This document shows positions 1,885 through 53,100 of a DNA stretch of 64,000 nucleotides, piece by piece. The stretch's first letter is position 1, and every line of letters starts with the position of its first letter. The stretch is from Thermodesulfobacteriota bacterium (GTDB lineage Bacteria > Desulfobacterota_D > UBA1144 > Nemesobacterales > JAJCZQ01). The stretch spans positions 288,001-352,000 of the forward strand of contig OZ244044.1 in the NCBI GenBank assembly GCA_965215275.1, given 5' to 3'. The notes below the pieces were generated by a model. The model was not told the DNA's origin, searched no databases, and saw only the letters and a program-made list of their open reading frames with translations. The position numbers and the translations under genes were made by a program.

Positions 1885-1996
1885 TTGACATTACAGTGGA
1901 ACAGAAGTAAAATATCGCTATCATGAATATAAAAGAGCGTATCTCTGCTACCCCCCCCCATATATACTTGACCTTTCAGCCGGAGATAAGCACAAT
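1885..1996 (+). promoter_or_regulatory. Two tandem sigma70-type promoters
   Basis: TTGACA(1885)-17-TAAAAT(1908) and TTGACC(1968)-17-CACAAT(1991); each has an ATG 9 nt after the -10 box; same layout upstream of paralogue 3. Confidence 0.65.
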
Positions 1997-2029
1997 AGTA
2001 CGATAATGCTGAAGTTTCTACCCCCCCCC
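1951..2029 (+). repeat. Two poly-C tracts (C9 at 1951-1959 and C9 at 2021-2029)
   Basis: Seen directly; each follows an ATG (1923, 2006). Confidence 0.95.
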
Positions 2030-4509
2030 ATAAATTATTAATTCCCTTTTTCTTTTTTCTGTGCCTTGTAAACGTTGGTGCATATGGTCAGACCAGCATT
2101 AATAACTGTGACTCCAGTGCAGCGGTCGAAGCTACTTTAAGACTGGATGGGTCAAAACGCGGAGGAAGTTTAGAGGATGCCGGTGGACTGCTTTACTTTC
2201 GGACACAGGTAAACACAGATAACATTTTTATTGCAGAGATAAGTGTAACCTTCACCTTCTCCAATGATCTGGGATACAGTTTACAGTTGTGTGACAGCAA
2301 TGATGATCTGATAGCAAGTACTACTGAAGTGACTTTGCTAGGGAACGCAGCGATAGCCACAATAAAAACCCGCCTCAGACGAGGAACGTACTATATAATT
2401 GTGGGAAGCAGTGGTGCTACACCCTACGAATTAGGTGTTTCATTTGCTGATTCTCAACAATTATTCAACGACTGTTCAGTTATCACTACCAATTTTCCAA
2501 ATGATCCCTTATACGGCTGTCAGTGGTATCTGAAATATCCAGGAAGTGATCTGACATTAGGCAATAAGCCAATAATCACTGGAGACAGAACAAATATAGA
2601 TATAAAAATAGAAGAGGTATGGGATGATAGTGTATTTGGAGCTGGGATTAACGTAGCGGTGGTAGATCATGGTATGGACACAGATCATGAGGACCTTGCT
2701 GACAACGTGGATACCGCACTTTCTCATGATTACTCCGGGAACAGCGACCTATACAGTCCTTCAAGTGGTCGTGGTACACGTGTAGCTGGCATTATAGCAG
2801 CAGTTGGTGATAACAGCCTTGGAGTAAGAGGTGTAGCACCTCAGGCAGGCATCTACAGTTATAATTTAGCTGGTAACTTCAGTGATACTAACGCAAAGGA
2901 CGCCATGGTCCGTAATATGGATACAACGGCTGTATCTGTCAACAACTGGGGACCGAAGGACCTTCCTGTTCTTACAGAGGCTTCATCAGAGTGGGAAGAA
3001 GGAGTGGAAACGGGTATAAGAGAAGGTTTTGGTGGTAAAGGTGTGTTTTACGTATGGGCGGCAGGGGATGGACATGAAGGATCAGATCAGGCTAATTTTA
3101 ATGAGTATTCCAGCTACTACGCAGTAACTACCGTATGTTCAGCAGAGGTCGTAAAGCTCGGTAATGATTCGAAGTTTGTTACCAAGAGTTCTTTTTCAGA
3201 AGAGGGAGTAAATCTATGGGTATGTGCACCGGGTTCTGATATTGTAACTACCGACAATAACGATGGTTATACTTTTGAGTTCCCTGGAACATCAAATTCA
3301 GTTGCTGTCGTTTCAGGAATAGCAGCACTGATAAGAGAGGTAAACAGTGATATTAGCTGGAGGGACCTGAAACTGATACTGGCAGGTTCAGCTCGCCATA
3401 CTCTCAGCAATACTAATCATCTCTTTTTCGACGACCAAAACTGGAGGACAGAAACATTTAAATACGGTTCTGATTCAGAGCAGTATTCTTACAATCCAAA
3501 GTTCGGTTTTGGCATGGTAGACGCCGCTGCGGCAGTAGAACTTGCCGAAAATTGGACCAATGTTCCACCGCCAATGAGACCCGTGACGGTTTCCTCGGGT
3601 AATATCAATACGGTTATCCCAGACTTCAGAACGGGAAACGCAGAAGATGTTTCCGCTGTTTTCAAACTGACCGTACCTGATATAGATATACCAGATACTG
3701 AGGTATTTACAGAATTTATAGAGATAAATCTCAATTTCACTCACCCTTTCTTTCCTTTTTTAGATATAGAAATAACCTCCCCTGACGGTACCCTGTCGAA
3801 ACTCACTGAGGCATATCCAGCAGATGCAATATCACATTTATCTGACAGATCTCTTACTATAGACGACTTTGACTACACGGGCAGAGATCATCGTTTTGGT
3901 TTAGCTAAACATTTAGGAGAAAACCCTGCTGGAGAGTGGACTTTAAAGATAACTAATAATTCACCTGCAGGTACGGGGACCTTACACTCATGGAACATTA
4001 AGGTCTATGGTCATATGTCTGGTGAGACGCCGACGTTTAACAACTGGACCATACCTGATAAGAACTACGTGCCGGGAACTGCAATAAAGGAAACACTGCC
4101 TGAGGCAACAGCAGGGAATGGAGAATTAACCTACAGCCTTTCCCCTCTTTTACCAGATGGAGTTACTTTCAGTGAAGCTGACAGAGTGCTTAGCGGAACA
4201 CCAACTGCTGTATCTTCTGGCAGTTATACATATACCGTAACGGATGAAGATGGAGATAAGGATGAGCTGAGCTTTACTATCAGGGTAACAACTACGCCTC
4301 CAGGACCAACGGACCCACCACCAACAACAGGACCAAGACCACGAAGACCGACATCATCAGGTAGTGATGGAGGCGGAGGTGGAGGAGGATGCGTGATATC
4401 TGATCAGAGCGAAGCCGTTCCTGATATGCTCACAGCAGTGGCATCTCTGATGCTTATACCTGTATCCGTTGTTATCAGAAGAAAGATAAGGTCTCGGATA
4501 AAGACCTGA
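2006..4509 (+). CDS. S8 kexin-like pseudo-protease 1: signal peptide, 1 PPC-like repeat, S8 domain, P-domain, 1 Ig-like (He_PIG-type) repeat, Gly-rich-Cys/TM/basic tail; frameshifted at C9
   Basis: ATG 2006 is out of frame; +1 C joins it to HKLLIPFFFFLCLVNVGAYGQ and ORF 2287-4509; AVVDHG, RGTRVAG, WAAGDG, GTS; GEWTLKI P-domain. Confidence 0.85.
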
Positions 4510-19255: not shown

Positions 19256-20512
19256 ATGCCGGAGAGGAAACTAATAACAAAGGAAAAATACCAGAACAAG
19301 TTGATGGCTATTTTTTCGACTCAGGAAGGTGATTTGATAGAGAAGGTCAATCGTAACAACGATAGGTTAAATGCAAAGGAGATTACAGAAGAACAGTGGT
19401 TGATCGAAGATCGCACTCTGAAGGCAGAAGGTGCAGATATCAGAAGCACAAAAGATCTTTGGGAACAGCTTGACAGCTATGTGATCAACACTGGAGATTA
19501 TAGTCCGGTATTTGCTGATCATCATAAAATGCCCGTTCCATCGTTTGATAAAGCATTTTCTGAGATGATAGGCACTCCATCTCAGAAAGGAAAGGTCAAT
19601 TCATATGAGATGAGTGAACGTGACTGGATAACGCTTTTGAGGGGTGGGGGTATGGCAGTTCCGTTACAGGCAGCTGTAGGCGATATGTCGACTGGCGATG
19701 CTGTTGCAGAAGCAACTAACACGTCAGAGGTTGTTGAATACCTGATGAATCCTATTACTATCTTAGATTTTATCACTGTCCGGATGATAAATACGAGACA
19801 GATACGTATGATCCGAGAAGATACTACTAAAGCAGATTTTGGTCTGACCGCCAAGGTAGCAACCAGAGATTGTGTGTCTACTGGTGCTTTCTATCGTTTC
19901 AATGAGGAGTTGATGCTGGATGACAATAGAGCTCACTTCCTTCCATATGTAAGAACAAGGTTGCCGATGGAGTTTCGCCTTCAGGTCGAAACGTGGTTAT
20001 ATCGTGGAGCTGGTACAAGTAACACTCCTCTTGGTTTTACTGCTGAAACAGGTAGATCTACCTTGACTGACCTTGCACACAGTGGAGCTTCTGTGCAAAA
20101 ACGGCTTGAAGCCTTTGAGGATGCTCGTGTAAAAATCTTTACAGATGCAAAAACACGTGCCAACTTGTTCATTGTGCATCCATCACATTTTTCCGAGTTT
20201 TTAACTCTGAAAAACAGTGATAATAGGTATCTGTTTGCTATAAACACAGTGAAAACACAGAGTGGAAAACAGATCCCAACAGTTTGGGGTGTACCTATTG
20301 TAGAATCTTTCGCAGCTGAGAAGAATAAATTCACGGCTGTGGATATGGGGTTTGTATCCCAGTATCTTCTGAAGGGAAGCACAAGGCTCCGTGAAGGTCA
20401 GATAGATGACGACCTGCTGAAAAACAAATGGACGATCATAATTGACTCCTATATGAATCAGTATACCGTTCGTCCTAAAGCGGTCTGCACATGGGGACAG
20501 GCGACTTCTTAA
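19256..20512 (+). CDS. HK97-family phage major capsid protein
   Basis: N-terminal coiled region; LYRGAGTSNTPLG, IVHPSHF..LTLKNSDNRYLF, TVWGVPIVES, VRPKAV. Confidence 0.85.
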   Translation: MPERKLITKEKYQNKLMAIFSTQEGDLIEKVNRNNDRLNAKEITEEQWLIEDRTLKAEGADIRSTKDLWEQLDSYVINTGDYSPVFADHHKMPVPSFDKAFSEMIGTPSQKGKVNSYEMSERDWITLLRGGGMAVPLQAAVGDMSTGDAVAEATNTSEVVEYLMNPITILDFITVRMINTRQIRMIREDTTKADFGLTAKVATRDCVSTGAFYRFNEELMLDDNRAHFLPYVRTRLPMEFRLQVETWLYRGAGTSNTPLGFTAETGRSTLTDLAHSGASVQKRLEAFEDARVKIFTDAKTRANLFIVHPSHFSEFLTLKNSDNRYLFAINTVKTQSGKQIPTVWGVPIVESFAAEKNKFTAVDMGFVSQYLLKGSTRLREGQIDDDLLKNKWTIIIDSYMNQYTVRPKAVCTWGQATS

Positions 20513-22751: not shown

Positions 22752-25700
22752 TTATGTATTTATCTGAGATCTTCTCTTTTTTCTAATTATTACTGATACA
22801 GGTATTAGCATCAGAGATGCTACTGCTACGAGCAGATCAGAAGCAACTTCGTTCTGACCGGAGATTGCACATCCCCCACCACCGCCTGCATCACTAACTG
22901 ACGTCGGACCTCGCGTTGGTGGTCTTTGTGTTGGTGGCGGCAGAACAGTTGGAGTTGTTACTTTGATCGTAAAACTCAACTCATCCATATCCTTATCTTC
23001 ATCTATCACCCTGTACATATAATTACCAATTGATGCTCTGGTCGGTATTCCGCTTATCGTTCGGGTAACTGAATTAAAACTCAATCCAGTAGGTAAAGGA
23101 AGGTTTATACTGTAAGTCAGAACTCCATCCCCTCCCGCTGCCTCAGGCAGCGTCTCTGATGTTGTCTGTCTCCCTACTGTGTAATGCTGAGTGGAAATGG
23201 ACTCTCCATCAAAGGTCGGACTCCTGTCTGCTTCTACCGTGATACCAAAACTCAACTCGTCCGTATCTCCATCTTTATCTGTTACCGTATACGTGTAAGT
23301 AGTCTCAAGTGCTGCAGTAGTGGGTGTGCCACTTAACTCTCGGATAGCTTCATTAAAACTCAATCCAGCAGGCAATGCTGGGGTTATACTGTAAGTTAAA
23401 GGCGCGTTTCCTCCCGTTGCCTCAGGCAGCGTCTGCGGGGTTATCAGGCTCCCTGCTATGTACTCCTGATCAGTGATTGTTGTACCACCAAAGGTCGGAC
23501 TCCTGTCTGCTTCTACCGTGATACCGAAACTCAACTTATCCGTATCTCCATCTTCGTCTGTTACCGTATATGTGTAAGTAGTCTCAAGTGCTGCAGTAGT
23601 AGGTGTGCCACTTAACTTTCGGGTAGCTGAATTAAAACTCAATCCAGCAGGCAATGCTGGGGTTATACTGTAAGTTAAAGGCGCATTCCCTCCCGTTGCC
23701 TCAGGCAGCGTCTGCGGGGTTATCAAGATCCCTGCTATGTACTCCTGATTAGTGACCGTTGCACTACCAAAGATCGGACTCCTGTCTGCTTCTACCGTGA
23801 TATGGAACGTCAAATCATCCGTATCCCCGTCCTCATCCGTTACTGTATATGTATATGCTGTCCTGCCCACTGCAGTAGCCGGTGTTCCGCTTATCATTCG
23901 GGTAACTTCATTAAAACTCAATCCAGCAGGTAATTCTGGGGTTATACTGTAAGTTAAAGGTTCATTCCCTCCAGTTGCAACAGGCAGCATCTGCGGGGTT
24001 ATCAAGCTCCCTGCTATATACTCCTGATTAGTGATCGTTTCACCGTCAAACCTTGGCACTGTGTCTCCGGCCCTGTGACCATAAACTTTAATGCCCCATG
24101 AGTGTAAAGTCCCTGTATCTGTATCTTCAGGAGAAAAGTCAGATATTTTCAAAGTCCACTCTCCAGCAGAACTTTCTCCCAAGTGCTTGGCTGAACCAAA
24201 ACGATGAGTGTATCTGCTGTATACGAAATCTGATGCGCTGAGTGAAGTGGACAGTGCTCCTGATGCAAATTCCTCAGTAAGTTTAGATACAGTACCAACA
24301 GGGGACATTATCTGTATATTTAAATCTGGTAAGAAACCATGGGAGAGTTCGAGATAAATCTCTACAAACTCTGTAAAAAGCTCATTATCGGATATGGTCA
24401 GTCTGGAAATAGTTTCTCCGTCTCCGGTTCTGCTGTAGTCGACAATTGTCATATTAATAGTAGACGAGGAAACGGTCAGGGTTCTTATTGGCGTTGGTGG
24501 AATCCTGTTCCAGTTCTCAGCAAGTTCTACTGCTGCATCAGCATCTACCACACCGAAACCGTACTTTGGATTGTAATTATACCTCTCTGAATCAGAACCA
24601 TATTTAAGTGCTCCTGTCTCCCATCCTGAGTCTGAAGCGTCGTTCTTACGAGCTGAAGCTGCAAGTATTAACTTAAGATCTCTCCAGCTAAGCTGGCCGT
24701 TCACCTCTCTCATCAGTGCTGCTACACCTGAAACCTGTGCTGCTGAATATGCCGTTCCACTTGCATCAAAAATATATCCATTGTTATAAGATTCAGTAGT
24801 TGTAATATGTTCTCCTGGAGCACATACCCATAGATTTACTCCTTCTTCTGAAAAAGAACTCTTACTTCCCTCTCCATCTACTGAACATATTGTAGTTACT
24901 GCGTAGTAGTTAGAATACTCGTCAAAATTAGCCTGATCTGCGTCTTCATGTCCATCTCCAGCCGCCCAAACGTAAAATACCCCTTTACCACCGAACCCTT
25001 CACTTATACCCGTTCTCACTCCTTCTTCCCACCTTGATAAAGCCCCGCGAAGAAGAGGCAACTCATCCGGTCCCCAGTTGTTGTTCGATACGGCTGTTAT
25101 ATCTTTATTACGTATCATAGCATTTTTTACGTTAGCGTCGACAGGATTCCGCCAATTATAACTATTGTCTAAATCATAATTATAGATGGTTGCCTCTGGT
25201 GCTACACCTCTCACTCCAAGACTGTTATCACCGACTGCTGCTATAATGCCTGCCACACGTGTACTTGAATAGTCATTGTGGTATCCGTATCCTATGTAGT
25301 AATGATGATTCAGACTGGTATTTACATTATCAGTAAGGTCCTCGTGCCCTATGTGAACACCATCATTTACCACTGCTATGTTAATTCCAGCACCGAATAT
25401 GTCATCATCCCAGACCCCTTCTATGTTTATATCTTCTCCTGCTGTTATTGTCTTACCGAAAATATTCCGTCCTGTATTTTTCAGATACCACTGACAGCCG
25501 TAGAGAGGTTCACTTGGAAAATTGGTATTACTGGAGTCACAATGATCAATATAATCAGAAAGAGTAGGATCAGTTGCTTCAGCTGTAAGTCGAGAGTACT
25601 CTGTATTACTATTGCTTTCCACAACGATATAGTACGTTCCTGATGGGACGATAGCTGTAATCTCCCGAAGTCTACCTGCCAGAAGTCTACCTGTACTACC

Positions 25701-27469
25701 GTCTATCAGATTATTATTGCTGTTACACAAATGTATACCGTATTCGTGTGAACTGTGTCCGAGATCAAGACTGTCAAAAATTATACCTATATCTATGGTA
25801 CTAAGAGGGTCTGTTAAGTATGCCTTATAGTAATGTAGTCCTCCACCACTAGCGAAACTTCCACTTTGTCGCGTGCCGCCCAACCACAATCTTCTAATAT
25901 TACTTGCACTGGAAGCACCTTCACAATAATAAGAAGGATCAGGATCAGTTTTTGTAGCTCTAAGTTCACTGTAGCTTATAGAATCATCGCCTCCCACAAC
26001 GATATAGTGTGTTCCCGATCTTACGGTAGCTGTAATACTTTCACGACTTACGCCAAACTCATCACTTGTACCAGTAGTACTGTCTATCAGACCATCATTG
26101 CTGTCACACAACTCTAAACTGTATTGGACCCCACCAGAACCTTGGCCGAAGGTTATATCTATATCTAATTCTGTAAGAAGGTCCGTTACTTCTATCTCAT
26201 AGTAACGAAATTCAGCACCAGTATTGAAACTTCCACTTTGCTCCATTCCGTCAAGCGTCAGGATAGTTGAACTTTGCCCTGAGTTGCAATTATTAGAACC
26301 AGCTCTGATATAGTAGTCTGTAGAATAATATTTATTGGTATAGCCTTCCAAAACGATATAGTACGTTCCTTGTTCGACAGTAGTTGTAACATGCCGACCT
26401 CTCCATGTACCGGTGGAACTGGCTATTATATTATTATTGCTGTCACACAAAACTAAACTGACTGCGGAAGAACTGACATCAACTGTTGAGGTCGTAAATA
26501 CAATTACTTTGCTAAGAGGGTCTCTTACACTTACTTGATAATAGTGCAGTTTACCAGCTCTTAAACTTTCATGTCGTCCATGTCCGTCCAACCACAATCT
26601 TCCAATATTACTTGTACTGGATGCACCTTCACAATAATCGGAATAATCACTTGTTGTAGCTGTAAGTCCAGAGTAGTCTATACTATCATCACTTCCCACA
26701 ACGATATAGTACGTTCCCGATCTTATGATAGCTGTAATATTCTCAGGACTTGCAACACCACTACTTGTACCAGTAGCACTGTCTATTAAAGCATCATCGC
26801 TGTCACATAAAACTAAAACGTAGTCGACACCATTACCAGTACCAAAAGTTATATCTATATCTAATTTTATACCAGGGTCTGTTACATCTATCTGATAGTA
26901 ATGCAGTTCACCATTAGCATTGAGACTTCCACTTTTTGAATCTCCGCCAACCTCCAGCGTATCTTCGGTACCTTCACTGGCATCGCAATATTCGGAAGGA
27001 GCAGGAGCATCTTCATTAGCACTGACATAGTAGGCTGCACTATACTGGCTATTGATATAGCCTTCAAAAACGATATAGTATGTTCCCGGCCCGACCGTAG
27101 CTGTAACACGCCGACTTTTCCCCGTACCTGTAGAACTAGTTATCAAATTATTATTGCTGTCACACAACTCTAAACTTACTGTGGTACTATAAATATAACT
27201 AAGTGAAAATCCCGCCGTTATAGTTACTTTGCTAAGAGGATTTGTTACATCTATCTGATAGTAACGTATTCCACCCCAGCCATTGAAATCGCCATTGAAA
27301 GTTCCACTTTGCTCCGTTCCCTCAAACCCCAATATAGCTTCGATACTTGCACTGGAGTCACAATTATTACTCTGTCCATATGCCTCAATGGATACAAAGC
27401 ATAGAAGAAAAAAGACAAAGAGAATTACTAATTTAGATGGGGGGGGGTAGAATCTAAATAAATGTTCAT
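22752..27469 (-). CDS. S8 kexin-like pseudo-protease 2: signal peptide, 5 PPC-like repeats, S8, P-domain, 4 Ig-like repeats, Gly-rich-Cys/TM/basic tail; frameshifted at C9
   Basis: ATG 27469 reads MNIYLDSTPPHLN*; +1 C at 27439-27447 joins it to PSKLVILFVFFLLCFVSIEAYGQ and ORF 27332-22752. Confidence 0.85.
23216..24050 (-). repeat. 279-bp tandem coding repeats (Ig-like units)
   Basis: TCGGACTCCTGTCTGCTTCTACCGTGATA recurs at about 23216, 23495 and 23774; units nearly identical. Confidence 0.9.
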
Positions 27470-27479
27470 AACCTGTTTT

Positions 27480-27509
27480 ATTCTACTTTGTATCCTGACC
27501 GAATGTCAA
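27480..27509 (-). promoter_or_regulatory. Sigma70-type promoter of S8 paralogue 2
   Basis: TTGACA-18-TAGAAT on the minus strand, ATG 10 nt downstream. Confidence 0.65.
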
Positions 27510-27863
27510 GAATAACCTCTTTAGTAAACAAAAAGCCGTTATCAAAGCAAGAAAACCTAAAAATAAGGTCGGTCATACTAAAAGATCCGTTCAAAACTTT
27601 ATAGTCAGCATCATATATGAAGTAATCAATAATAAATGCGACCACAATGAAACTAACTTAAATTACCATCCTCTTCTCACTATCTGCTCTAATATCCACA
27701 AATAACTTCTCAAATAGATATATCTTTGCCCTACTCTATCCATAACCCTTATAAATTAACATTTTCTCCACTTCTAAGGTACACTTTCCCTCAATGTTAA
27801 ATATAATTGTAATATTTGCTTGATGTTTATATCATTACTAACTTAACACAGAGAGGTACATAA

Positions 27864-28130
27864 ATGACCGACACAAAAAACAACCAAGGTGGTTTCAAGC
27901 TTGATTTCTCAGGATTTATATTATCACTCAATACATCAGCATTAATTCATCTTGGTGAAATTCCCGACCCTGAATCCAAACAAAGAATGGTGAACTTACC
28001 TGCGGCAAGACACACTATAAACATTCTGGAAGTCATCACTGAAAAAACCGAAGGGAATTTATCGGAAGAGGAACAGAAACTCATTAATGACATTATTTAT
28101 GACCTCAGGATGAAGGTAATAAAAACTTAA
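27864..28130 (+). CDS. DUF1844 family protein
   Basis: DFSGFILSLNTSALIHLGEIPDP...ARHTINILEVITEKTEGNL. Confidence 0.8.
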   Translation: MTDTKNNQGGFKLDFSGFILSLNTSALIHLGEIPDPESKQRMVNLPAARHTINILEVITEKTEGNLSEEEQKLINDIIYDLRMKVIKT

Positions 28131-28172
28131 ACCTGAATATTCAATATTATAGATAACTCTCTCAAACTAAAT

Positions 28173-29612
28173 ATGAATTATCGCTCAGTCATAAACGACT
28201 TCAAGAGCAAGAAAGTACTTGTGATCGGAGATCTGATCCTGGATAAATACATCTCCGGCACAAGCGGCCGTATATCTCCCGAGGCTCCCGTGCCTGTGAT
28301 CAGTCATAACGGGACCGAATATCAGCTGGGCGGGGCTTCGAACGTTGCAAAGAATATCATAAACCTGGGCGCTGAAACACATCTGATCGGAACGGCCGGT
28401 AAGGATAACAATGGAAGGACCATAACAAAGCTGCTTGGCAAAGCAGGTATAAACCCGGAAAACATTATTAAGGACAGTAACAAACCGACAACGCTCAAGA
28501 CGAGGATCATTTCAGGTAACCAGCAGCTTCTGCGAATTGACGAAGAGCGTACCTCTGAGATCTCCTCCGATATACAAGACCAGCTGCTGGAGATGATACA
28601 AAAGGTCATTCGTACCAGCAACCCGGACGCAGTAATAATATCGGATTACAATAAAGGAACGGTAACGGATAAGATCTGCAGAGTGGCGATAAAAATGGCT
28701 GGAAGGTCCGGTGCTTTCATAGCCGTTGATCCAAAAGGGAAAGATTTCAGAAAGTACAGGGGAGCAAACGTTATAACCCCGAACAGAAATGAATCCGAGA
28801 CCGTCTATGGTAAGCCGATATCAGATAATAACGTACTGGTCAAAGCACTAAAGAAAATAAAAAGCGATACAGGAGCGGAAGGGGTCGTGATCACAAAAGG
28901 AAGTGAAGGGGTAAGTTTTATAAAAGGGAATAAGGTCTTTAACGTTCCAACTGCCGAAAAAGACGTATACGACGTAACGGGAGCAGGAGATACATTTATC
29001 TCCGCTTTTACCCTGTCGGTCCTGTGCTCCGGTTCATGGACGACCGCCGCAAAGATAGCCAATGCAGCGTCTTCCGTCGTAATTGACCACCTGGGAACGG
29101 GTTCACTTACCCGGGACCAGCTGGTGAACAGGCTCTCTTTTCCGGAAAAGATACAGAATATAAGGGATCTGATCCCTGTTCTGAACGAAAGAAGAAAAAA
29201 AGGAGAAAAGGTCGTCTTTACCAACGGATGCTTTGACATCCCTCACGCCGGACACGTCAAGTTCTTAAGGGAATCCAGAAAATACGGCGACCTGCTGGTC
29301 GTAGCGCTCAACAGTGACAGATCGGTAAGAAAATTAAAGGGAGAAAACAGACCTTTCTTCTCAGAGAACGACAGAGCTGCAATAGTATCTGAGTTCACAT
29401 GTGTGGACTACGTCATCATCTTTGACGAAGATACGCCCTTGAGCACGATAAAAAAATTAAGGCCGGACGTTATTACAAAGGGAGCCGACTATAAGAAAGA
29501 GCAGATAGTTGGCAAGGACCTTGTGGAAAGCTGCGGTGGACAGGTAAGGATAGTCCCGCTTGAACAAAACAGGTCGACCTCGTACTTTGCAGACAAGATC
29601 AGAAAAGATTAA
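28173..29612 (+). CDS. hldE: Bifunctional heptose-7-phosphate kinase / heptose-1-phosphate adenylyltransferase
   Basis: RISPEAPVPV, DVTGAGDT, VFTNGCFDIPHAGH, ALNSDRSV. Confidence 0.95.
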   Translation: MNYRSVINDFKSKKVLVIGDLILDKYISGTSGRISPEAPVPVISHNGTEYQLGGASNVAKNIINLGAETHLIGTAGKDNNGRTITKLLGKAGINPENIIKDSNKPTTLKTRIISGNQQLLRIDEERTSEISSDIQDQLLEMIQKVIRTSNPDAVIISDYNKGTVTDKICRVAIKMAGRSGAFIAVDPKGKDFRKYRGANVITPNRNESETVYGKPISDNNVLVKALKKIKSDTGAEGVVITKGSEGVSFIKGNKVFNVPTAEKDVYDVTGAGDTFISAFTLSVLCSGSWTTAAKIANAASSVVIDHLGTGSLTRDQLVNRLSFPEKIQNIRDLIPVLNERRKKGEKVVFTNGCFDIPHAGHVKFLRESRKYGDLLVVALNSDRSVRKLKGENRPFFSENDRAAIVSEFTCVDYVIIFDEDTPLSTIKKLRPDVITKGADYKKEQIVGKDLVESCGGQVRIVPLEQNRSTSYFADKIRKD

Positions 29613-29627
29613 CCGGCTGATCCAATA

Positions 29628-30536
29628 TCAAGGCTCAATACTTGAAAGCTTTGAGAACTCGGCGTATCTGGCGTTTATATCCTCTCTTTTGACGTTTGCC
29701 AACCGGTCCACACTGAAACTTTCCACTGTAAAGGACGCCATGACGCTGCCGTAGAAAACGGCTTTTTTATAATCCATGTTCCCTGCTGATCCGCAACCGG
29801 CCATATAGCCCATAAAACCGCCGGCAAACGTATCCCCGGCACCCGTCGGATCAAAGACGTCCTCGAGCGGATAGCCTGGAGCACAGAATATACCTTTACC
29901 GTTGAACATCAGCGCTCCATACTCGCCTCTTTTGATCACAACGGTCCTTGGACCCATGTTCATTATCTTACGTGCTGCCTTAGTTATTATAGGTTCACCT
30001 GACAGTTCCCGTGCTTCCGAGTCGTTGATCATAAGAATATCAACGAAGCTTAAAAGTGATCTAAGCTTATCGGGCTTGTTCTCTATCCAGAAGTTCATCG
30101 TGTCGCACGCCACTATCTTAGGTCTTTTCATCTGCTCAAGTACCGACATCTGTATAACGGGGTCGATGTTTGCCAGGAACACGTACTCGGCTTCCTGCAT
30201 GTTATCAGGTACGACCGGTCTGAACGTCTCGAACACGTTCAGATGAGTGGACAACGTCTTTGCTTCGGAAAGGTCGTATCCATATTCACCTTCCCACCTG
30301 AACGTAAATCCGTCCTTTTCCTTCTTTACACCATCCACGTTTATCTCCTTCTGCCTCAACAGATCAAGATGTCCTTCAGGAAAATCCCCTCCGACCACTG
30401 CCACTACGTTGACCCCGGTAAAGTGGCTTGCAGACAGAGAAAAATACGAGGCGGAACCGCCAAGCACGTTACTTACCTCTCCAAACGGTGTTTTAACGGA
30501 ATCAAGTGCCATTGAACCAACAACAAGTAAACTCAT
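29628..30536 (-). CDS. PfkB family carbohydrate/nucleoside kinase
   Basis: LGGSASY, DPTGAGDTFAGG. Confidence 0.9.
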   Translation of the reverse strand: MSLLVVGSMALDSVKTPFGEVSNVLGGSASYFSLSASHFTGVNVVAVVGGDFPEGHLDLLRQKEINVDGVKKEKDGFTFRWEGEYGYDLSEAKTLSTHLNVFETFRPVVPDNMQEAEYVFLANIDPVIQMSVLEQMKRPKIVACDTMNFWIENKPDKLRSLLSFVDILMINDSEARELSGEPIITKAARKIMNMGPRTVVIKRGEYGALMFNGKGIFCAPGYPLEDVFDPTGAGDTFAGGFMGYMAGCGSAGNMDYKKAVFYGSVMASFTVESFSVDRLANVKREDINARYAEFSKLSSIEP

Positions 30537-31390
30537 TATAAATATCTCCCCACCAACAGTTCTACTTTATCCCTATCGGCTTTTTTGATCTCACTTCGTG
30601 GCGTTATAATGGAATCTTTCAGCGACGAACCACACTTACAGTTCATCTTATCGGGTATTGACACGGTCAGTCTCTTGATTATAAGTTTTGCCATATCAAC
30701 GTTTTTCCTAAGCGTGTCAATAATGTCACCAACTGCAACTTCAGCGTGTTCATCATGCCAGCAGTCATAATCCGTCGAAAGGGCCATCGTGGAATAGCAG
30801 ATCTCCGCCTCCCTTGCCAGTTTGACCTCCGGCATGTTCGTCATACCGATAACGTCCACATTCCACTGCCTGTACAACTCACTTTCTCCCTTGGTGGAGA
30901 ACTGCGGACCCTCGATACAGATATAAGTCCCTCCCATATGTGCCGTAGCACCTGAATCAACGGCTGCTTCGAACAGGATCTTTGACAGATGGGAACAGAC
31001 GGGGTCGGCCATTGAAACATGTGCAACGATGCCGCTGCCGAAAAAAGTGGATTCCCTTTTCCTGGTCAGATCAATGAACTGAGTGGGAACTACGATGTTC
31101 CCAGGTGCTATCTCATCCTTCATGCTCCCGACCGCACTTACTGATATTATCCACTTCACGTCCAGCATTTTCATTGCATAGACGTTTGCACGGTAGTTAA
31201 TGTCCGAAGGCATGATCTTATGCCCTTTTCCGTGACGCGGCAGGAAAAAAAGTTCTGCGTCCCCGAGAAAGCCCCTTATTATCTGTCCAGATGGGTCTCC
31301 CCAAGGCGTTGAGAGGTTTATGGTCTCAACGTTCTTCAATCCGTCCATCTCGTACAGACCACTTCCGCCAATTACACCTATCTTGAACAT
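30536..31390 (-). CDS. mtnP: S-methyl-5'-thioadenosine phosphorylase
   Basis: GVIGGSGLY, FLPRHG, EGPQFST, IGMTNMPE, TDYDCW. Confidence 0.93.
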   Translation of the reverse strand: MFKIGVIGGSGLYEMDGLKNVETINLSTPWGDPSGQIIRGFLGDAELFFLPRHGKGHKIMPSDINYRANVYAMKMLDVKWIISVSAVGSMKDEIAPGNIVVPTQFIDLTRKRESTFFGSGIVAHVSMADPVCSHLSKILFEAAVDSGATAHMGGTYICIEGPQFSTKGESELYRQWNVDVIGMTNMPEVKLAREAEICYSTMALSTDYDCWHDEHAEVAVGDIIDTLRKNVDMAKLIIKRLTVSIPDKMNCKCGSSLKDSIITPRSEIKKADRDKVELLVGRYL

Positions 31391-31608
31391 AGTTTTATTG
31401 AAAAACGTACAATTCTCCTTCTTTGCCCCTGTGCATAACCTGAAGCAGGCAGAAGCGTCTTAACAAAAATAGCAAGGTTATCAATAAACAGGTACTTTAT
31501 CAACATTTATTAAAAAAAGGGAACTATATATTTAAACAAAAAAAGAAAATGATCCGGACATCCTGATGTGACCTCTGTCATTAAATAAAAAAACGCTGTT
31601 CGTTATAT

Positions 31609-31747
31609 TTGACATTGCAGCAGAACAGAAGTAGAGTATAATCATAATGCGTATCCCTGTTATCCCCCCCCCCCACCACCATATACTTGACCTTTCAACT
31701 GAATATAGCTATCCTGTAACTACAATGTCAGGTTCATCCCCCCCCCC
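31609..31747 (+). promoter_or_regulatory. Two tandem promoter-ATG-poly-C units
   Basis: TTGACA-17-TAGAGT, ATG 31647, C11 (31664-31674); TTGACC-17-TATCCT, ATG 31725, C10 (31738-31747). Confidence 0.7.
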
Positions 31748-34700
31748 ATCAATGCAGTAGTCCAGTAAGCAGTTCCTGCTGTAACGGCAGACGGTTCATA
31801 TTTCCCTTTGTCTTTTTTCTTCTGTGCATAATGGTAATAGCTGCAAAAGGGCAGAGCAGTCTGGAAAAAACATTATCTGAATGCAGAGGTATCAGTGCAG
31901 ACACAGAAGATCCGTTATACGGATGTCAGTGGCATCTGAAGAACACTGGGCAGCTTAGTTTTTCCGGAAAGGCAGTAACAGCAGGAGAAGATATAAACAT
32001 AGAAGGGGTCTGGGATGATGGCATATCCGGTGCTGGAATTAACGTAGCTATTGTAAGTGACGGAATAGACCTTTCACATGAGGACCTTTCTGCAAACGTC
32101 CGTTCCGGACTGAACTGGAGTTATTTTGAAGAAAACAATTCTGAAAGCGTTGATTTGTCTGACAATTCATCCTTTACCGGAACACGAGCGGCAGGTGTTA
32201 TTGCAGCGACTGGATATAATGGTCTGGGAGTAAGAGGTGCAGCACATAAGGCAAGCATCTATAGTTATAAATTAGCTGGTAACTTCAGTGATGCGGACAT
32301 AAAGGATGCAATGGTCCGTAATAAGGAAATAACAGCAGTATCGGTTAACGACTGGGGATATGAGGACGTAGTTTTTCTTCAGGGGGCTCTGGCTGCGTGG
32401 GAAGAAGGAGTGGAACTTGGTATAAAGAAAGGGTTTTATGGTAAAGGGGTATTTTACGTCTGGGGAGCAGGGGACGGATATGAGAATAACGATCAGGCTA
32501 ATTTTTCTGAATATTCAAATTACTACGGGGTAACGGCCGTGTGTTCAACAGACGGATTTGGAAAAAAGAGTACTTTCTCAGAAGAGGGAGTAAATCTTTG
32601 GGTATGTGCACCTGGTTCTGATATTACAACCACTGATAACAACAACGATTACGTTGCAGCTTCCGGAACTGTCCTTTCAGCATCACAGGTTGGAGGAGTG
32701 GCAGCACTGCTGAGAGAGATAAATGGAAATCTGAGCTGGAGGGATATAAAACTTATACTTGCAGGTTCAGCACGTCAGAACGATGTTTTTAACATAAGCT
32801 GGGAGACTGGAGCAGTTAAATACGGCTCTGATACTGAAAGATATAAATACAGTTATAAATACGGATTTGGAACTGTAGACGCAGAAGCAGCTGCAGAGCT
32901 TGCCAGAAGCTGGAAAGGTGTTGGAGAAATGAGGACAGTCAGCGCCTTTTCAGATAATGAAATAACAATCCCTGATGGAGAAGCAGATGGAGTTCTTGTT
33001 TCCAGGGTTACGGTGCCGGACCTTGAAGAGATCTTATTTACGGAGTTCGTGGAAGTTGAACTTGTTCTCTCGTGTGACTGCGTACAGGACCTTAATATAC
33101 AGATAACCTCTCCTTCCGGGACGGTATCTGAACTTGTAAGGGAGTCTGTCAGTGGAACTTCAGATGAAGAAAAGTGCGTCAGTTACCTGAGAAAAAAACA
33201 TCGTTTTGGGTCGGCTAAACACCTCGGAGAAGACCCTTCCGGAGAATGGACACTTAAGATCTCTGATACTGCTTCCGGAGATGAAAAAAATGGAAAAAAC
33301 ACTGTTACCTTACACTCATGGAGCATTAAGGTCTATGGACATAAGAAGGGTTTTTTTTCTCAGGACCTTGGCAGGGGAATAACTCCTAAACGTATAGAGT
33401 GGCCCTCTCAAGAGATAGGTGATCACGTGTATAGAACAGGGGTTGAAATAACACCATTAATGCTGCCTGTGGCAACGGGGTCTGGAACAATAAGCTACAG
33501 TATAGAGCCTCCTTTACCTGATGGATTGAGCTTGACCCGACCTTTTTTCCATATAATAACCGGAACACCCACTACTCCGCAGGAGAAGACTACGTATGGA
33601 TGGTTTGCTGAAGATGATGATGGGTCGAGTTTTGTTGGTTTTTCTATTACGATAAAAGACGTGCCGAGTTTCGGAGGTCAGACAATTAGTGATCAGGATT
33701 ATATAGTAGGGGTTCAGATACCACCATTAGTACTGCCTCGTGCAACGGGAGGGTCTGGAACATTAACCTATAATATAATACATGGTTGCTGCACTGGAGT
33801 ACCAACTGGATTGTTTTTTAACAGTGGTACCCGGAGAATATCTGGAACTCCTACTGCTGCATCGTCTGATACTTATACATACAGGGTAACGGACGAAGAT
33901 GGAGAGACGGCTGAACTTGAGTTCAGGATCAGTGTAAGAACTGAAAGTGAAATACCAAGCTTCGGCAGTCAGACGATAGATGATAAAGTGTATTATAATG
34001 GTGAAACAGTAACAGAAACGCTGCCTCAGGCAACGGGAGGGGATGGAACTTTAAGTTACAGTTTAACTCCTACTGGTACTTTACCTTTTCAGTTGGCGTT
34101 TATCACAGCTACCCGAACGATAAGTGGGACACTCAGTCTCAGGCCAGAGGCAATTCCTTGGACCAGGAGTTTTAAATATACCGTAAGAGACGCAGACTCA
34201 GATACGGGTGACGGTGATACTGACAGTCTGACCTTCTCTATTACGGTTGATGACAGAACACCGACATTCGGCAGTCAGACGGTAGAAAATCAGGTTTTTG
34301 TTAATGGTTCAGCAGTAACGTTAACGCTGCCTGAGGCAACGGGAGGGGATGGAACTTTAAATTACAGTTTAACTAATAGTATAGGTGATCCAATTAACAT
34401 TAATGGATTGGATTATAACGAAAACACCAGAACGTTAAGTGGAACGCTCAACGTTTCTCCAAGAGGATTACCTATAACTCAAACTTATACCTACAAGGTA
34501 ACTGACTCTGATACCAATACTGATGATGGAGATACGGATGAGTTAACGTTCAGTATCACTATACAAGAAGACAGCGTTCCAACCTTTGGTGGTGAGACGA
34601 TAGATGATCAGGTGTATATAGCAGGAAATCGAATAACGCCAGTAACACTGCCTGAGGCAACGGGAGGGAATGGAGATTTAACATACAGTTTTAACCCTGC

Positions 34701-35883
34701 TCTGCCTTCTGGATTGGATTTTAACCAGAACACCCGGGTGTTAAGTGGAATTCCAACTGCTGCAAGTGGTCAGGTTCTTTATACGTATACGGTAACGGAC
34801 GAAGATGGAAGTACAGATCATATACAGTTCAATATCACGACAGAGAATGACAGATTTCCAATCTTTGGCAGTAACAGCAGTATAAGTGATAAGGAGTACA
34901 CGGCAGGAGTTCAAATAACACCAGAAACGCTGCCTGCTGCAACAGGAGGAAATACTCCATTAACTTACAGTATAACTCCTACATTACCAATTGGATTGGA
35001 GTTTAATAACAACACCCGAGTGTTAAGTGGAACACCAACTACTGCAACGAGCAGGACTACTTATACATATACGGTAGAAGACGCAAATGGAGACAGAAAC
35101 AGGTTGACGTTCAGGATCACAGTAAGAGCAGCAGAACCAGACACGGAACCGAGCTTCGGCAGTGAGACAATCCCTAATCAGGGTTATGTAAAAGATCATA
35201 CAATAACACCGGTAACGCTGCCTCGTGCAACGGGAGGAAATGCTCCATTAACTTATGGTATAACTCCTTCTTTACCTTCTGGATTGAACTTTAACACAGC
35301 TACCCGAGTGATAAGTGGAACACCGACCACTGCAACGCCTGAGAATACTTACACGTATACGGTTACTGATATAGATGGAGATACTCGCAGTTTGACGTTC
35401 AGGATCACAGTAAGGACTGACGGCGCACCAACCTTTGGCAATGAGACAATTCGTGCTCAGTCTTATGTAATAAGGAGTCCAATAAGACCATTAACGCTGC
35501 CTGTGGCAACGGGAAGAAATGCTCCATTAACTTACAGTTTAGCTCCTGCTTTACCTGCTGGATTGAGCTTTAACGCAAACACCCGACGGATCAGTGGAAC
35601 ACCCAATACTGTGACAAGCAGGAGAACTTATACATATACGGTAACGGACAGTAATGGAGAGACGGATGAGTTGAGTTTCACGATCAGGGTAACTGCTCCT
35701 CAGTCGCCAACGCCACCAGGAGGAACAAGAACATCAGGTACTGATGCAGGCGGTGGTGGTGGGTGTGCGGTCTCCGATCAGAACAGCGTTGTTTCCGGTC
35801 TGCTCGGAGCAGTGGCATGTCTTATACTTATACCTGTATCAGTAATTATCAGAAGGAAGAGAAGACATCAGATAAAGACTTAG
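31725..35883 (+). CDS. S8 kexin-like pseudo-protease 3: signal peptide, S8, P-domain, 8 Ig-like repeats, Gly-rich-Cys/TM/basic tail; frameshifted at C10
   Basis: -1 C joins ATG 31725 to ...RRFIFPFVFFLLCIMVIAAKGQ; the ORF-track start at 31831 lies inside the signal peptide. Confidence 0.85.
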
Positions 35884-39533: not shown

Positions 39534-40757
39534 TTACCCATACTGTTCTGAGTGCAGAGTTCCTCTATCCCTGTTCTCTTTTGATCTGATACTCTTAGCA
39601 CTCATCGGGAGTATTGCTACCTTATTCCCGCCCGACATGAAGTCTCCTTCATTAAGAGTATTAATATTTTTACCTGCGTTTATATCCCTGTCTTCCGAAT
39701 AACCGCAATACATACAGTTAAATACTCGTTGATACAGAGGCAGTTTTGGATTTACCTTTCCGCATTCAGAACAGGTTCTTGTTATATAATGAGCTTTAAC
39801 TAAAACCAGCTTGCCTCCAGCTATCTCGGCTTTGTAAGCAAGTTGATGTTTGATCTTACCCCATTGCTGTTCTGTTATGGATTTAGCAAGATGATGGTTC
39901 TTTACCATTCCTTGTATATTCAAATCCTCTAATTTTATATGATTACACTTCTTTACTATATTGGTGGTCATTCTGTGTATAGCGTTATTTTCACGATCGG
40001 TAGTTCGTTCCCATTCCTTCGCTAACGATAAAACTTTCTTCTTTCTGCTGTCAGAACCTTTTACCGCTCTTGAAACAATTTTTTGCTTTCGTTTAAGTTC
40101 CTTCCTGTCTATCCTGATACCGGGAACTTTAGTTCCATCTGAAAAAGCTAATCTGTTTGTTATTCCAAAATCTATCCCTATGGATTTATCCAAAGGTCTC
40201 TTCTTCTCATCTGTAAACTCACACAGAAACTGGAGCTTAATTCTTAACGAACTTTGAATTACTCTTATTATTGTTTTAGGTGCTTTCAAACAAACACACT
40301 CTGGCATACTACCTTTGAAAGATAATCTGCCAAGTCCCTTTATCGTTAAATATGTTCTTCTGCCTGTCTTCTTTATGTTTTTATAATTGTTTGTTTCAAA
40401 TGAACGAACTGGTCTGTTTGGACTTTTATATTTAGGTCTGCCAACCTTCCCTACCTTCTTACCTGCTTTCTTATTCCTTAAATAGCTCAAATAAGGACTA
40501 TATGCATTATCCAGTCTTTCCAGAACGCTTCTTTGAGCTACCGCATTAAACTTTTCGAATCCCTTGTCTTGCTCTCGGACCTCAGTCAACTGATTAAACT
40601 GTTCGTATTTAGAGATAGTTCTTTCATACCAATCCCAGGATCTTAACCTATGGTACAAGGCACTGTTATACAGATCGGTAAGCTGATTTAAGAATTCATC
40701 CAGTCTTTTATGAAAACCACTATCTGCCTTTACAGTTCGTGTAATCGTTCTGATCAC
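39534..40757 (-). CDS. tnpB: RNA-guided endonuclease TnpB
   Basis: RuvC-I IGIDFG, RuvC-II IKLEDL, zinc finger CSECG..CMYCG, RuvC-III DRDINA; all three acidic residues intact. Confidence 0.93.
   Translation of the reverse strand: MIRTITRTVKADSGFHKRLDEFLNQLTDLYNSALYHRLRSWDWYERTISKYEQFNQLTEVREQDKGFEKFNAVAQRSVLERLDNAYSPYLSYLRNKKAGKKVGKVGRPKYKSPNRPVRSFETNNYKNIKKTGRRTYLTIKGLGRLSFKGSMPECVCLKAPKTIIRVIQSSLRIKLQFLCEFTDEKKRPLDKSIGIDFGITNRLAFSDGTKVPGIRIDRKELKRKQKIVSRAVKGSDSRKKKVLSLAKEWERTTDRENNAIHRMTTNIVKKCNHIKLEDLNIQGMVKNHHLAKSITEQQWGKIKHQLAYKAEIAGGKLVLVKAHYITRTCSECGKVNPKLPLYQRVFNCMYCGYSEDRDINAGKNINTLNEGDFMSGGNKVAILPMSAKSIRSKENRDRGTLHSEQYG
39540..39660 (-). ncRNA. Putative omegaRNA scaffold overlapping the tnpB 3' end
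   Basis: Expected position; pairings UCGGG/CCCGA, GAGUGC/GCACUC and an AGAG-GAA-CUCU hairpin; conserved in two orphan copies. Confidence 0.65.
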
Positions 40758-49928: not shown

Positions 49929-50129
49929 ATGAAAAAATCTAATACTTTCTCAGAATCAAAAGATACAGAAGTATATCTTGTCCCCGGAAATGAGTTTTTT
50001 AACAAAGCTGATACTTTAAAAGCAATTGAGAACTTTGACAAAGCAATAAAGATTAACACGCAACATGCAAAAACTTACTATAGCCGAAGATGTGACGAAA
50101 CTTTTCTAAAGAGGTACTTCCTGCAATGA
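49929..50129 (+). pseudogene. Truncated TPR gene paralogue (5' part)
   Basis: MKKSNTFSESKDTEVYL matches the N-terminus of ORF 47740; upstream 49710-49930 duplicates 47458-47740. Confidence 0.8.
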
Positions 50130-53100
50130 CTTCACTGGACCGCCTTCTTGAATCTTACCGAACCGACTCTATCAGCGAGCGAGATAAGGGCACTGCATTT
50201 GAGAAACTAATCGCCACATGGTTGGTGACCGACCCCGTGCAGTCAAAGCGATTTGCTCGTGTCGAACTCTGGTCTGACTGGGCACGCCGCAAGGATATTG
50301 ACAGGACAGACACCGGGATTGATCTCGTCGGCTCCTTGCATGATGGCAAGTTTGCCGCGATCCAATGCAAGTTCTTCGATATCAACCGGAGCATCCGCAA
50401 GGAGGATATAGATACCTTCATCTCTGCCTCGGCAAAGTCAGCATTCGCCGAACGTCTGATCGTCGAGACCACCGACAGACCGTGGACTCTAAATGCCAAG
50501 ACGATGCTGTACGGCCAGAGGGTCCCAACGGCAGTCGTCGGTCTTCGCGACCTCCGCAACAGCCAAGTGGACTGGTCCACGTTCGCAGCAACGGGCAAAA
50601 TCGCACGTCCCAAACCGAAGACCTTACGGCAGGACCAAGTCGAGGCACTGGAGGCAGTGAAGAAAGGGCTGGCCGATGCCGACCGTGGCAAGCTTATCAT
50701 GGCCTGTGGGACCGGAAAAACCCTGACTGGGCTACGCATCGCCGAGGAACTCTCGGGTTCTGGCAGGCATGTTCTGTTACTGGTGCCGTCCCTTGCCTTG
50801 ATGTCCCAGACCGTGTACGAATGGTGTGCTAATACGGTCTTGTCACTCTCCACCTTTGCAGTGTGCTCGGACACTCAAGTGGGCAGAAGGCGCCGAAGTC
50901 GACATGATGTTGCAGAGCTTGAAGTTACCGACCTCGCCTTTCCACCCACGACGGACGCGGTTTTGCTGGCACGAGAGGTCGCTGCATCGGACGCCGACTC
51001 AATGCGCGTCGTTTTTGCAACCTATCAGTCAATCTCGGTAATCGCAGCCGCACAGGCAAATCATGGACTTCCTGAATTTGACCTGATTATCTGCGATGAA
51101 GCTCACCGCACCACAGGTGTAACTTTCCCGGGTGAGAACCAGTCTAATTTCGTAAAGGTGCACGACAACGAAACGATCCGAGGCTGCAAGCGGCTCTACA
51201 TGACGGCAACACCACGGATCTACGGTGAGAATGCAAGGACGAAGGCACGCGACACGCAGGCCGTTCTTGCCTCAATGGATGATCCTGACCTCTACGGTGA
51301 AATTCTATTTTATCACGGGTTCGCGCGGGCGGTTGAGAGCGATATCCTGACAGATTACCGCGTAATAGTTTTAATCATGGACGAGGGGCAGGTGAGCACT
51401 GCGGTGCAGAATCGCCTTGCCGACGAGAACACTGAACTTGTACTTGACGACGCCACGAAAATCATCGGTTGCTGGAGAGCCTTGTCCAAGAGTGGTCTTA
51501 TGGGAACGACCGTGGACGGTCTTGAACCGATGCGTCGCGCTCTTGCTTTCTGCCGGGACATCAAAAGTTCGAAACTTGTTCAAAACGAGTTCGAGCAGGT
51601 TGTCGCTGAATTTAAGTCTAAAACTGGTAAAAATGAGCGAAAAGGTGTCCTCTGTAAAGTCCGGCATGTAGATGGCACCTATAACGCCCGGGATCGGGGC
51701 CGGTTGCTCGACTGGCTAAAGGAAGACACGGGTAAAAATGTCTGCCGGATCCTGAGCAATGCACGATGCCTGACCGAAGGTGTTGACGTGCCAGATCTCG
51801 ACGCGATTCTATTTCTGCATCCACGCAACAGTCAAATAGATGTTGTGCAGGCCGTGGGTCGGGTGATGCGCAAAGCACCCGGCAAGCGGATGGGCTACGT
51901 CATTTTGCCGGTCGGCGTACCGCCAGGTGTTTCCACAGATGTGGCTCTCGCCGACAACAACAAATACCGAGTTGTCTGGCAGATCCTGAATGCACTACGA
52001 GCCCATGACGACCGTCTTGACGCAGTCATCAATCAGGGTGGCCTTGGGCAAGATATCAGCAGCCGTATTGCTATCATTGATGGCAGATCGCCGATTGCCA
52101 GCACTGAACTCCAAGCGGTCACGGCAAAAATTGAAGACCTGCCCAGCCGTCCCGGAACACGCGGATTAGAGATCGGTCGAGGAGATTTGAACAACTACGA
52201 AAACAGGAGCGAACAACAAGAACCATTGCAGTTGGTAATCAATGAGTTTTCCCGGGCAGTGATGGCGAAGATCGTCGAGAAGTGTGGCACGCGCGACTAC
52301 TGGGAAGACTGGGCAAAGGACGTCGCCGAAATTGCAAGACGGCATGTCACCAGAATCGCCGGACTTGTACAGGAAAAGGACAGCAACGCTTCGTCGGTTT
52401 TCCAGAAATTTTTTTTGGAACTCCGCGACGACCTCAACGAGTCTGTCACGGAACACGATGCCATTGAGATGCTGGCACAGCATCTGATTACTTGTCCCGT
52501 ATTTGATGCACTATTCGAAGGTCATACCTTCATCAACAGAAACCCTGTCTCGGTTGCCATGACAAAGGTCCTGTCGGTGATCGACGAAGCACAAGTCGAG
52601 CGCGAGGCCAGAACCCTCGAAGGATTCTACACCTCCGTGCGAAAGCGGGCGAAGGGAATTACCGATCCGCTGGCACGGCAGAACCTAATCGTCGAGCTCT
52701 ATGACAAGTTCTTCCGGGGCGCGTTTCCGCGTACCACGAAAATGCTCGGCATCGTCTACACGCCGGTTGAGATCGTTGACTTCATCATCCGGTCGGTAAA
52801 TGAAGCATTGCAGGATGAGTTTAACCAGACACTCGGTTCGGAAGGTGTCCATATTCTAGATCCATTTGCCGGTACCGGCACCTTCATCACCTGTTTGTTG
52901 CAATCGGGACTTATTGAGCCCGAAGACCTGGAGCGGAAATACCGCAAAGAAATCCATGCCAACGAGATCGTTTTGCTCGCCTACTATATCGCCGCCGTCA
53001 ATATCGAATCCGTCTTCCATTCGGTTTCCAGACGGGACGACTATCTTCCCTACACCGGTATCTGCCTTACCGATACCTTCGCCCTGCACGAGAGCGACGA

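Follow-up and report, generated by a model that had tools for sequence, protein, structure and literature searches.

Three genes in a 64-kb stretch of a Thermodesulfobacteriota genome (the window; 64,000 nucleotides, contig OZ244044.1, positions 288,001 to 352,000) encode an S8 protease domain, a P domain and He_PIG immunoglobulin (Ig) repeats: paralogue 1 (2287-4509, +), paralogue 2 (22752-27332, -) and paralogue 3 (31831-35883, +). All three fail the Asp-His-Ser triad test of the kexins, reading D-R-S, N-S-A and S-T-V at these positions, and they belong to a family of 57 S8 plus P-domain paralogues in the same genome (G000; 1.99 Mb, one contig), 49 of which are triad-defective. We consider it probable that these 49 kexin-fold copies without a working triad, window genes included, constitute a phase-variable, non-enzymatic surface repertoire. 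The evidence comes from the catalytic columns, the predicted fold, the pattern of selection, and a poly-C run that lies between start codon and signal peptide in every dead copy and in none of the six intact ones.

Catalytic residues, fold and layout of the window genes

Pfam models PF00082 and PF01483 matched all three window proteins, and the closest sequence matches of solved structure were furin and Kex2 (E about 1e-38), followed by Aeromonas sobria ASP. The catalytic columns were set by aligning paralogue 3 to furin with phmmer (E 2e-38) and by a family alignment that included outgroup homologues. Read in the order Asp/His/oxyanion/Ser, they are D-R-D-S in paralogue 1, N-S-D-A in paralogue 2 and S-T-D-V in paralogue 3. 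The triad motifs quoted in the initial annotation are present in the sequence and fall in these columns, and the alignments confirm both the triad losses and the change of the oxyanion Asn to Asp in all three genes. Since proteins of other assemblies carry the same substitutions (DRDS in P0002, P0005, P0007 and P0012, DRDA in P0015, N-DA, as in paralogue 2, in P0152, and STDL in P0138), those of the window genes are not sequencing errors. The pseudo-protease assignment first made for the three genes holds for paralogues 2 and 3, from which nucleophile and base are gone, and is likely for paralogue 1, in which Arg replaces His and Ser remains; the latter is the least surely dead, because its class retains Ser and a strongly conserved, remodelled pocket.

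The oxyanion Asn-to-Asp change is by itself not disabling; an oxyanion Asp occurs in active PC2. It also accompanies the Ser-Glu-Asp triad of the sedolisins (S53), and we rejected sedolisin-type catalysis for the dead copies, in which the general-base column holds Arg, Ser or Thr and never Glu. No propeptide was evident at the outset, and a propeptide family search of the window proteins likewise gave no match. The intact paralogues have the same N-terminal head and no propeptide either, so its absence is not diagnostic and was rejected as a mark of catalytic death.

An AlphaFold2 (AF2) model of the S8 and P domains of paralogue 2 (predicted local distance difference test, pLDDT, 83.5) gave a template modelling (TM) score of 0.84 to Kex2 and a Z score of 45.7 to furin, with a root-mean-square deviation of 2.3 over 436 residues, indicating that the kexin fold is kept in this paralogue. 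By modelled fold the window proteins appear to be kexin-subfamily derivatives; the dead ones, which fail the triad test, are not kexin proteases. The N-terminal PPC-like domain occurs once in paralogue 1, five times in paralogue 2 and not at all in paralogue 3. It had an atlas score of 0.94 to PF04151-rich clusters, and its model (pLDDT 86) best matched collagenase PPC/collagen-binding domains (E 2e-6, TM about 0.5), a shared fold that does not indicate a ligand. The tail comprises a Gly run, a Cys, a hydrophobic stretch and a basic end. The only CPBP (PF02517) protease gene of the genome (G000:C1:680806-681453, -) lies directly upstream of one paralogue (G000:678054-680561), and from this position its product is a candidate tail-processing enzyme. 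The features of the three window genes are as follows (ORF, open reading frame; OFF, out of frame):

1885-1913 (+): sigma-70-like promoter of paralogue 1 (TTGACA, 17 nt, TAAAAT), by sequence reading; the same motif lies upstream of most dead paralogues
1923-2029 (+): leader of paralogue 1, with ATGs at 1923 and 2006, each followed by a C9 run (1951-1959 and 2021-2029); both out of frame with the S8 ORF (OFF)
2030-4509 (+): body of paralogue 1 (D-R-D-S class), signal h-region and then the rest
from about 2089 (+): single PPC-like beta-sandwich of paralogue 1
about 2638-3414 (+): S8 domain of paralogue 1
about 3718-4002 (+): P domain of paralogue 1
about 4030-4290 (+): the one He_PIG repeat of paralogue 1, followed by the Gly-Cys/hydrophobic/basic tail
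27480-27509 (-): sigma-70-like promoter of paralogue 2 by sequence reading (TTGACA 27509-27504, TAGAAT 27485-27480)
27439-27469 (-): true start of paralogue 2, ATG at 27469 with a C9 run (27447-27439); as a result the signal peptide is out of frame and translation ends after 13 codons (OFF)
25520-27438 (-): signal h-region of paralogue 2 and five PPC-like beta-sandwich repeats, mature start at about 27374
24087-25520 (-): dead S8 domain (24642-25394) and P domain (24087-24368) of paralogue 2
about 25367, 25268, 24956 and 24752 (-): substitution sites of paralogue 2, Asp to Asn, His to Ser, Asn to Asp and Ser to Ala, respectively
22752-24086 (-): C-terminal part of paralogue 2, with four He_PIG Ig repeats, a Pro/Thr linker, the Gly-Cys/hydrophobic/basic sorting tail and the stop
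31609-31747 (+): leader of paralogue 3, with a -35 box at 31609, ATG at 31647 with a C11 run (31664-31674) and ATG at 31725 with a C10 run (31738-31747)
31748-35883 (+): body of paralogue 3 (S-T-D-V class), with signal h-region, He_PIG stalk (five stretches pass the Pfam test) and sorting tail
about 32029-32817 (+): dead S8 domain of paralogue 3
about 33046-33330 (+): P domain of paralogue 3

Origin of the family and selection on its dead members

The initial annotation had counted three paralogues, which is correct for the window; the 57 of the genome occupy 175,584 bp of open frame (175.6 kb, about 9% of the genome). Six have the full D-H-N-S set, two keep His and Ser with an oxyanion Asp (D-H-D-S), and the 49 triad-defective copies fall into a D-R-D-S class (10), a Ser-to-Ala class (9) and an S-[ST]-D-[FV] class (30), with the oxyanion Asp present in 47 of them. 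The long ORF runs unbroken to the tail in 46 dead copies and has a further break before the tail in the other three; one dead copy lacks half of S8. By position, the + strand holds 43 of the 57 paralogues, whichever the replichore, and the leading strand, as judged by GC skew, holds 34.

In a quick tree, from which two fragments were left out and in which 23 of 76 non-own homologues were included, the intact copies were basal, the two D-H-D-S copies came next (support 87) and all dead copies formed one clade (Shimodaira-Hasegawa-like approximate likelihood ratio test, SH-aLRT, 98), the support values being those of the quick method. This topology points to a single loss of catalysis, with the expansion of the dead copies afterwards. 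Outgroup homologues from other taxa (43-48% identity) carry D-H-N-S in 59 of 61 proteins, as do 62 of 72 domains in a second homologue set; the ten exceptions in the second set include two strain orthologues of window genes and several domains from proteins with two S8 domains. The distant homologues P0142, P0147-P0149, P0151, P0154 and P0157 are long and apparently contain two S8 domains, one of them with a substituted triad. When 40 genomes of the same order were searched with paralogue 3, no close match was found outside G000 (best 32% identity), and two kexin-like matches among these genomes have intact triads. A DNA pattern scan of JGI metagenomes returned two matches, both unrelated, and a literature search, with subscription papers largely outside its coverage, found no description of this kexin-like family.

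A genome of the same genus (G001) gave no S8 and no P-domain hit, a weak negative since this genome is 80% complete in 190 contigs, and 41 He_PIG matches. Four of its loci (L089, L090, L093 and L095) are He_PIG-repeat lipoprotein genes with a G9-10 run between the -35 and -10 boxes. Given these lipoproteins with a promoter run and without a protease head, the switched Ig-repeat surface protein seems to be older than the protease head.

Selection was estimated as the Nei-Gojobori ratio of non-synonymous to synonymous substitution rates (dN/dS). Across S8 it was 0.41, 0.27 and 0.26 in the three dead classes versus 0.33 in the intact copies, with dS of 0.25-0.35 and dN of 0.08-0.10. By these estimates the dead copies appear to be under purifying selection equal to that on the intact ones. 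A recombination signal was found in all four classes (0 of 500 permutations), to which clustered rates could add. Within the D-R-D-S class, variation resides in the N-terminal domain (dN/dS 0.71, the least constrained part) and in three inserted loops, and the core is nearly fixed.

The furin-equivalent calcium and S1 residues are partly retained in the dead copies (Glu331 and Asp/Glu258 in 49 of 49, Asp/Glu301 in 47 of 49). The equivalent of furin Asp306 is kept in the class of paralogue 2 and is mostly Asn or Ser in the other dead classes. In the largest class it is Ser or Asn in 30 of 30 copies, Trp254 is replaced by Arg in 22 of 30, and Phe or Val stands at the Ser position. The old cleft is variable in two of the three dead classes and partly filled in the largest, which argues against a classical substrate trap in those classes. 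The D-R-D-S class has a His directly after the catalytic Asp and keeps the Ser codon, each in 10 of 10 copies; dN/dS of its cleft codons was 0.20 (bootstrap 0.09-0.42) versus 0.44 (0.36-0.57) for the rest of the domain. This is the reverse of the intact copies (cleft 0.60 versus 0.26 elsewhere), which the other two dead classes resemble (cleft 0.39 and 0.43 versus about 0.24 elsewhere). The proposal that the pseudo-proteases had been repurposed is supported by purifying selection, the kept kexin fold and one loss followed by expansion; of the possible new roles named with it, a substrate trap of the classical kind is disfavoured by the cleft in those classes.

Poly-C tracts and the reading frame

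A run of C8-13 lies between start codon and signal peptide in 49 of 49 dead copies versus 0 of 6 intact ones. There are 77 such runs, 28 copies having two. The layout upstream of each dead ORF is ATG, poly-C run and signal-peptide h-region, usually preceded, some ten bases ahead of the ATG, by a TTGACA...TA.AAT promoter. Contrary to the early view that the long ORFs are otherwise intact, their 5′ ends are not: the TTG/ATG starts listed for them come after the real signal peptides, and a poly-C frameshift separates them from the true ATG. Of 48 scorable dead copies, about 11 can be read in frame from an ATG upstream of a tract and about 37 are out of frame, as are all three window genes; in paralogue 3 the C11 tract is in frame and the C10 tract is not, leaving the gene OFF. 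Tract lengths from 8 to 13 and both frame offsets are represented in the family.

The distribution of C/G runs in the genome is bimodal, with 78 of length 6, none of length 7 and 139 of 8 or more. Of these 139, 83 are inside an S8 ORF or just upstream of one, and most others, as judged by translations, are at TPR, methyltransferase, restriction and lipoprotein-like genes. Like contingency loci, the tracts combine a frame-setting G/C run in 5′ coding sequence with over-representation, varied length and a mixture of ON and OFF states. In the two-tract leaders, as read from the sequence, stops between the tracts leave a single open frame, so translation that begins at the first ATG requires the correct length in both tracts; the serial tracts of these 28 copies would act as an AND gate.

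Several other runs were observed. Two further members of the family, G000:C1:627284-628606 and 1649106-1650050, have the same signal region, a C9/C10 tract, PPC-like domains, an Ig repeat and the tail, without S8 or P domain. A G11 run splits one paralogue with His and Ser kept (G000:C1:513689-518958, -) inside S8, which makes it a switch of a second type. A C26 run, far longer than any other tract, directly follows a promoter-like stretch and ATG at G000:C1:1401695. In the window, a Type ISP restriction-modification gene (50126-55031, +) has a C11 run near its 3′ end (54688-54698), beyond which the specificity domain seems to carry on in a different frame, likely a phase-variable switch. Two further window genes are a phage capsid family gene (19256-20512, +; PF05065, E 3e-14), with no other phage gene evident among the neighbouring long ORFs, and a 407-aa ORF (39534-40757, -) that we take, from its C-terminal Cys pairs, to resemble IS200/IS605 TnpB.

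Contigs of other sequencing runs allowed the tracts to be compared. Those of runs X1 and X4 are identical to window positions 26900-31857, three tracts included, and give the same tract lengths for paralogue 3; at the paralogue 2 tract, agreement extends to runs X5 and X6 of two other studies. Run X1 may be the source sample itself, and contigs report majority alleles. Matching tract lengths in these contigs largely rule out assembly error as the source of the frameshifts in paralogues 2 and 3. Strains differ elsewhere: a 4,520-bp block containing one paralogue and a methyltransferase gene is missing from X5 and X7, and the paralogue 3 locus of X5 is a divergent allele with 57 substitutions in about 400 bp of the 5′ end versus 50 in about 4,050 bp of flank. 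One of four orthologue pairs differs in its called start, in frame here and called without a signal peptide in two other assemblies, a difference at the level of gene calls. The X5 and X6 contigs have an extra C at one tract, which may stem from paralogues.

Competing readings, known systems and meaning

In the phase-variable repertoire that we favour, one ancestral clade lost His and the oxyanion Asn, most of its branches later losing Ser and Asp as well. This dead clade expanded, keeping its fold under purifying selection and exchanging segments between copies. With the poly-C runs setting the frame of the signal peptide, slipped-strand changes would flip single copies on and off, so that each cell may export a different subset. 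The tail would anchor the protein and the Ig stalk hold out a head of PPC-like domains and dead S8-P; variation in the loops of this head may change what it binds or how a host, predator or phage recognises it. Proteolysis would come constitutively from the six intact paralogues, which have no tract. Several observations weigh against this explanation. Switching was not seen: the C9 length of paralogue 2 is the same in four of four runs (X1, X4, X5 and X6, from three studies), contigs giving majority alleles, and three of four orthologue pairs in other assemblies share their state. The link between a dead head and a tract is one ancestral event kept 49 times and not 49 independent events. Windowed dN/dS was nowhere clearly above 1 except in short loops, and the JDVT-CTERM profile scored at best 14 bits on the tails against a cut-off of 27, with 16 weak matches, all in the tails of this family. 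A stronger version, which we advance only tentatively, is an antigenic-variation-like system in which a single loss of catalysis, linked to the gain of poly-C, would have seeded 49 recombining surface pseudo-enzymes, many with two-tract AND gates, different cells displaying different heads to host or phage, with the old active site rebuilt in one subclass as a conserved binding or catalytic pocket.

Taken alone, the idea that paralogue 1 and the other nine D-R-D-S copies are not dead, their active or binding site having been rebuilt, seems unlikely. It draws on the kept Ser and Asp, the invariant new His after Asp, the Arg, Asn and Lys around the cleft, and a cleft more conserved than the rest of the domain, opposite to the intact copies. 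From its place in the sequence, this His is the one candidate for a substitute catalytic residue, the finding that the initial annotation had named as counting against its pseudo-proteases. Set against this are the Arg at the general-base position and the Asp in place of the oxyanion Asn. The two bootstrap intervals also show a slight overlap and, with dS of the cleft likewise low (0.15), gene conversion could yield the cleft pattern; the idea does not extend to paralogues 2 and 3, where Ser is missing. We regard it as quite unlikely that a dead head functions as a specific decoy or trap whose old cleft binds protease inhibitors or basic-motif substrates, shielding the six active paralogues or blocking host processing. 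The retained calcium/S1 acidic residues and the coexistence of active paralogues would suit such a role, whereas the changes at Asp306, Trp254 and the Ser site in the largest class would not; a decoy would gain little from being mostly off, and the mite SMIPP-S pseudo-proteases, in the available part of PMC4031079, bind outside the old site.

A self-amplifying, decaying repeat, spread by recombination, silenced by frameshifts and conserved-looking only through gene conversion, is improbable. The excess of out-of-frame copies, the three further breaks, the copy without half of S8, the strong mosaicism and the presence or absence of copies between strains would all be in keeping with decay. However, gene conversion transfers both synonymous and non-synonymous changes and leaves dN/dS no lower; the long ORF runs to the tail without a break in 46 of 49 copies, and long C runs are otherwise rare and sited at contingency-type genes. 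Least credible of all is that the frameshifts are long-read homopolymer errors and all genes are expressed. Homopolymers are error-prone in sequencing and the assembly is a single contig, but the X1 and X4 contigs are identical across three tracts, X5 and X6 match at paralogue 2, and gene calls for the orthologues P0005 and P0152 of other assemblies begin at the same downstream starts, which largely refutes it for paralogues 2 and 3.

Compared with known systems, the family resembles the kexin/furin S8B proteins, including ASP of Aeromonas sobria, in having S8 followed by a P domain, in its best sequence and fold matches and in partly kept calcium/S1 acidic residues. It differs in the loss of the triad in 49 of 57 copies, the PPC-like head, Ig stalk and sorting tail, and the multiple copies with frame switches. 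The Aeromonas enzyme is termed propeptide-deficient in the title of a reference in PMC5638518. Clostridioides difficile CspC and CspA likewise have a subtilase fold, a substituted triad (His to Thr and Ser to Ala, respectively), a conserved pseudo-site and a non-catalytic role beside an active paralogue, according to the available part of PMC7200643. Unlike the present family they are single-copy spore germination regulators with a bound prodomain, and that part describes no P domain, stalk, expansion or phase variation; the CspC family model (NF040808) gave about 19 bits against a cut-off of 675, placing our proteins outside the Csp type. PIMMS2 is a surface subtilisin-like protein whose triad is not essential (PMC5520436). 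Closer in scale are the SMIPP-S of the scabies mite, a 33-member dead-protease family at the host interface with an occluded pocket and binding elsewhere, which differ in being eukaryotic, secreted and of chymotrypsin fold, with no repeat switches in the accessible text of PMC4031079. The Trypanosoma cruzi trans-sialidase superfamily, as far as the accounts consulted go, is also a large surface family mixing active and inactive, lectin-like members, although with a eukaryotic sialidase fold and no slipped-strand control. In opa genes the repeat sits in the signal-peptide coding region. The Neisseria Opa and Campylobacter poly-G loci have dispersed, independently switched paralogues (11 opa genes) and G/C homopolymer switches, as described in the part of PMC11868660 available, a design like the one that we propose for our family; Opa proteins are beta-barrel adhesins and about one fifth as many, in contrast to the pseudo-enzyme product and the 28 two-tract copies here. 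By analogy, the family can be seen as the Opa/contingency-locus design applied to a pseudo-enzyme family like SMIPP-S or the inactive trans-sialidases.

The family is real, conserved and unusual in scale, and it brings known kinds together in a new combination: eukaryotic parasites are known to have large dead-enzyme families at a host interface, and bacterial pathogens to have repeat-switched families of paralogues, and here both are combined in an uncultured bacterium. For annotation it carries a warning, since its genes are called active peptidases and with wrong starts. The intact, unswitched paralogues beside the dead ones provide an internal control, and the stepwise series from D-H-N-S through D-H-D-S and D-R-D-S/A to S-T/S-D-F/V offers a natural set on how pseudo-enzymes originate and what selection keeps in them.

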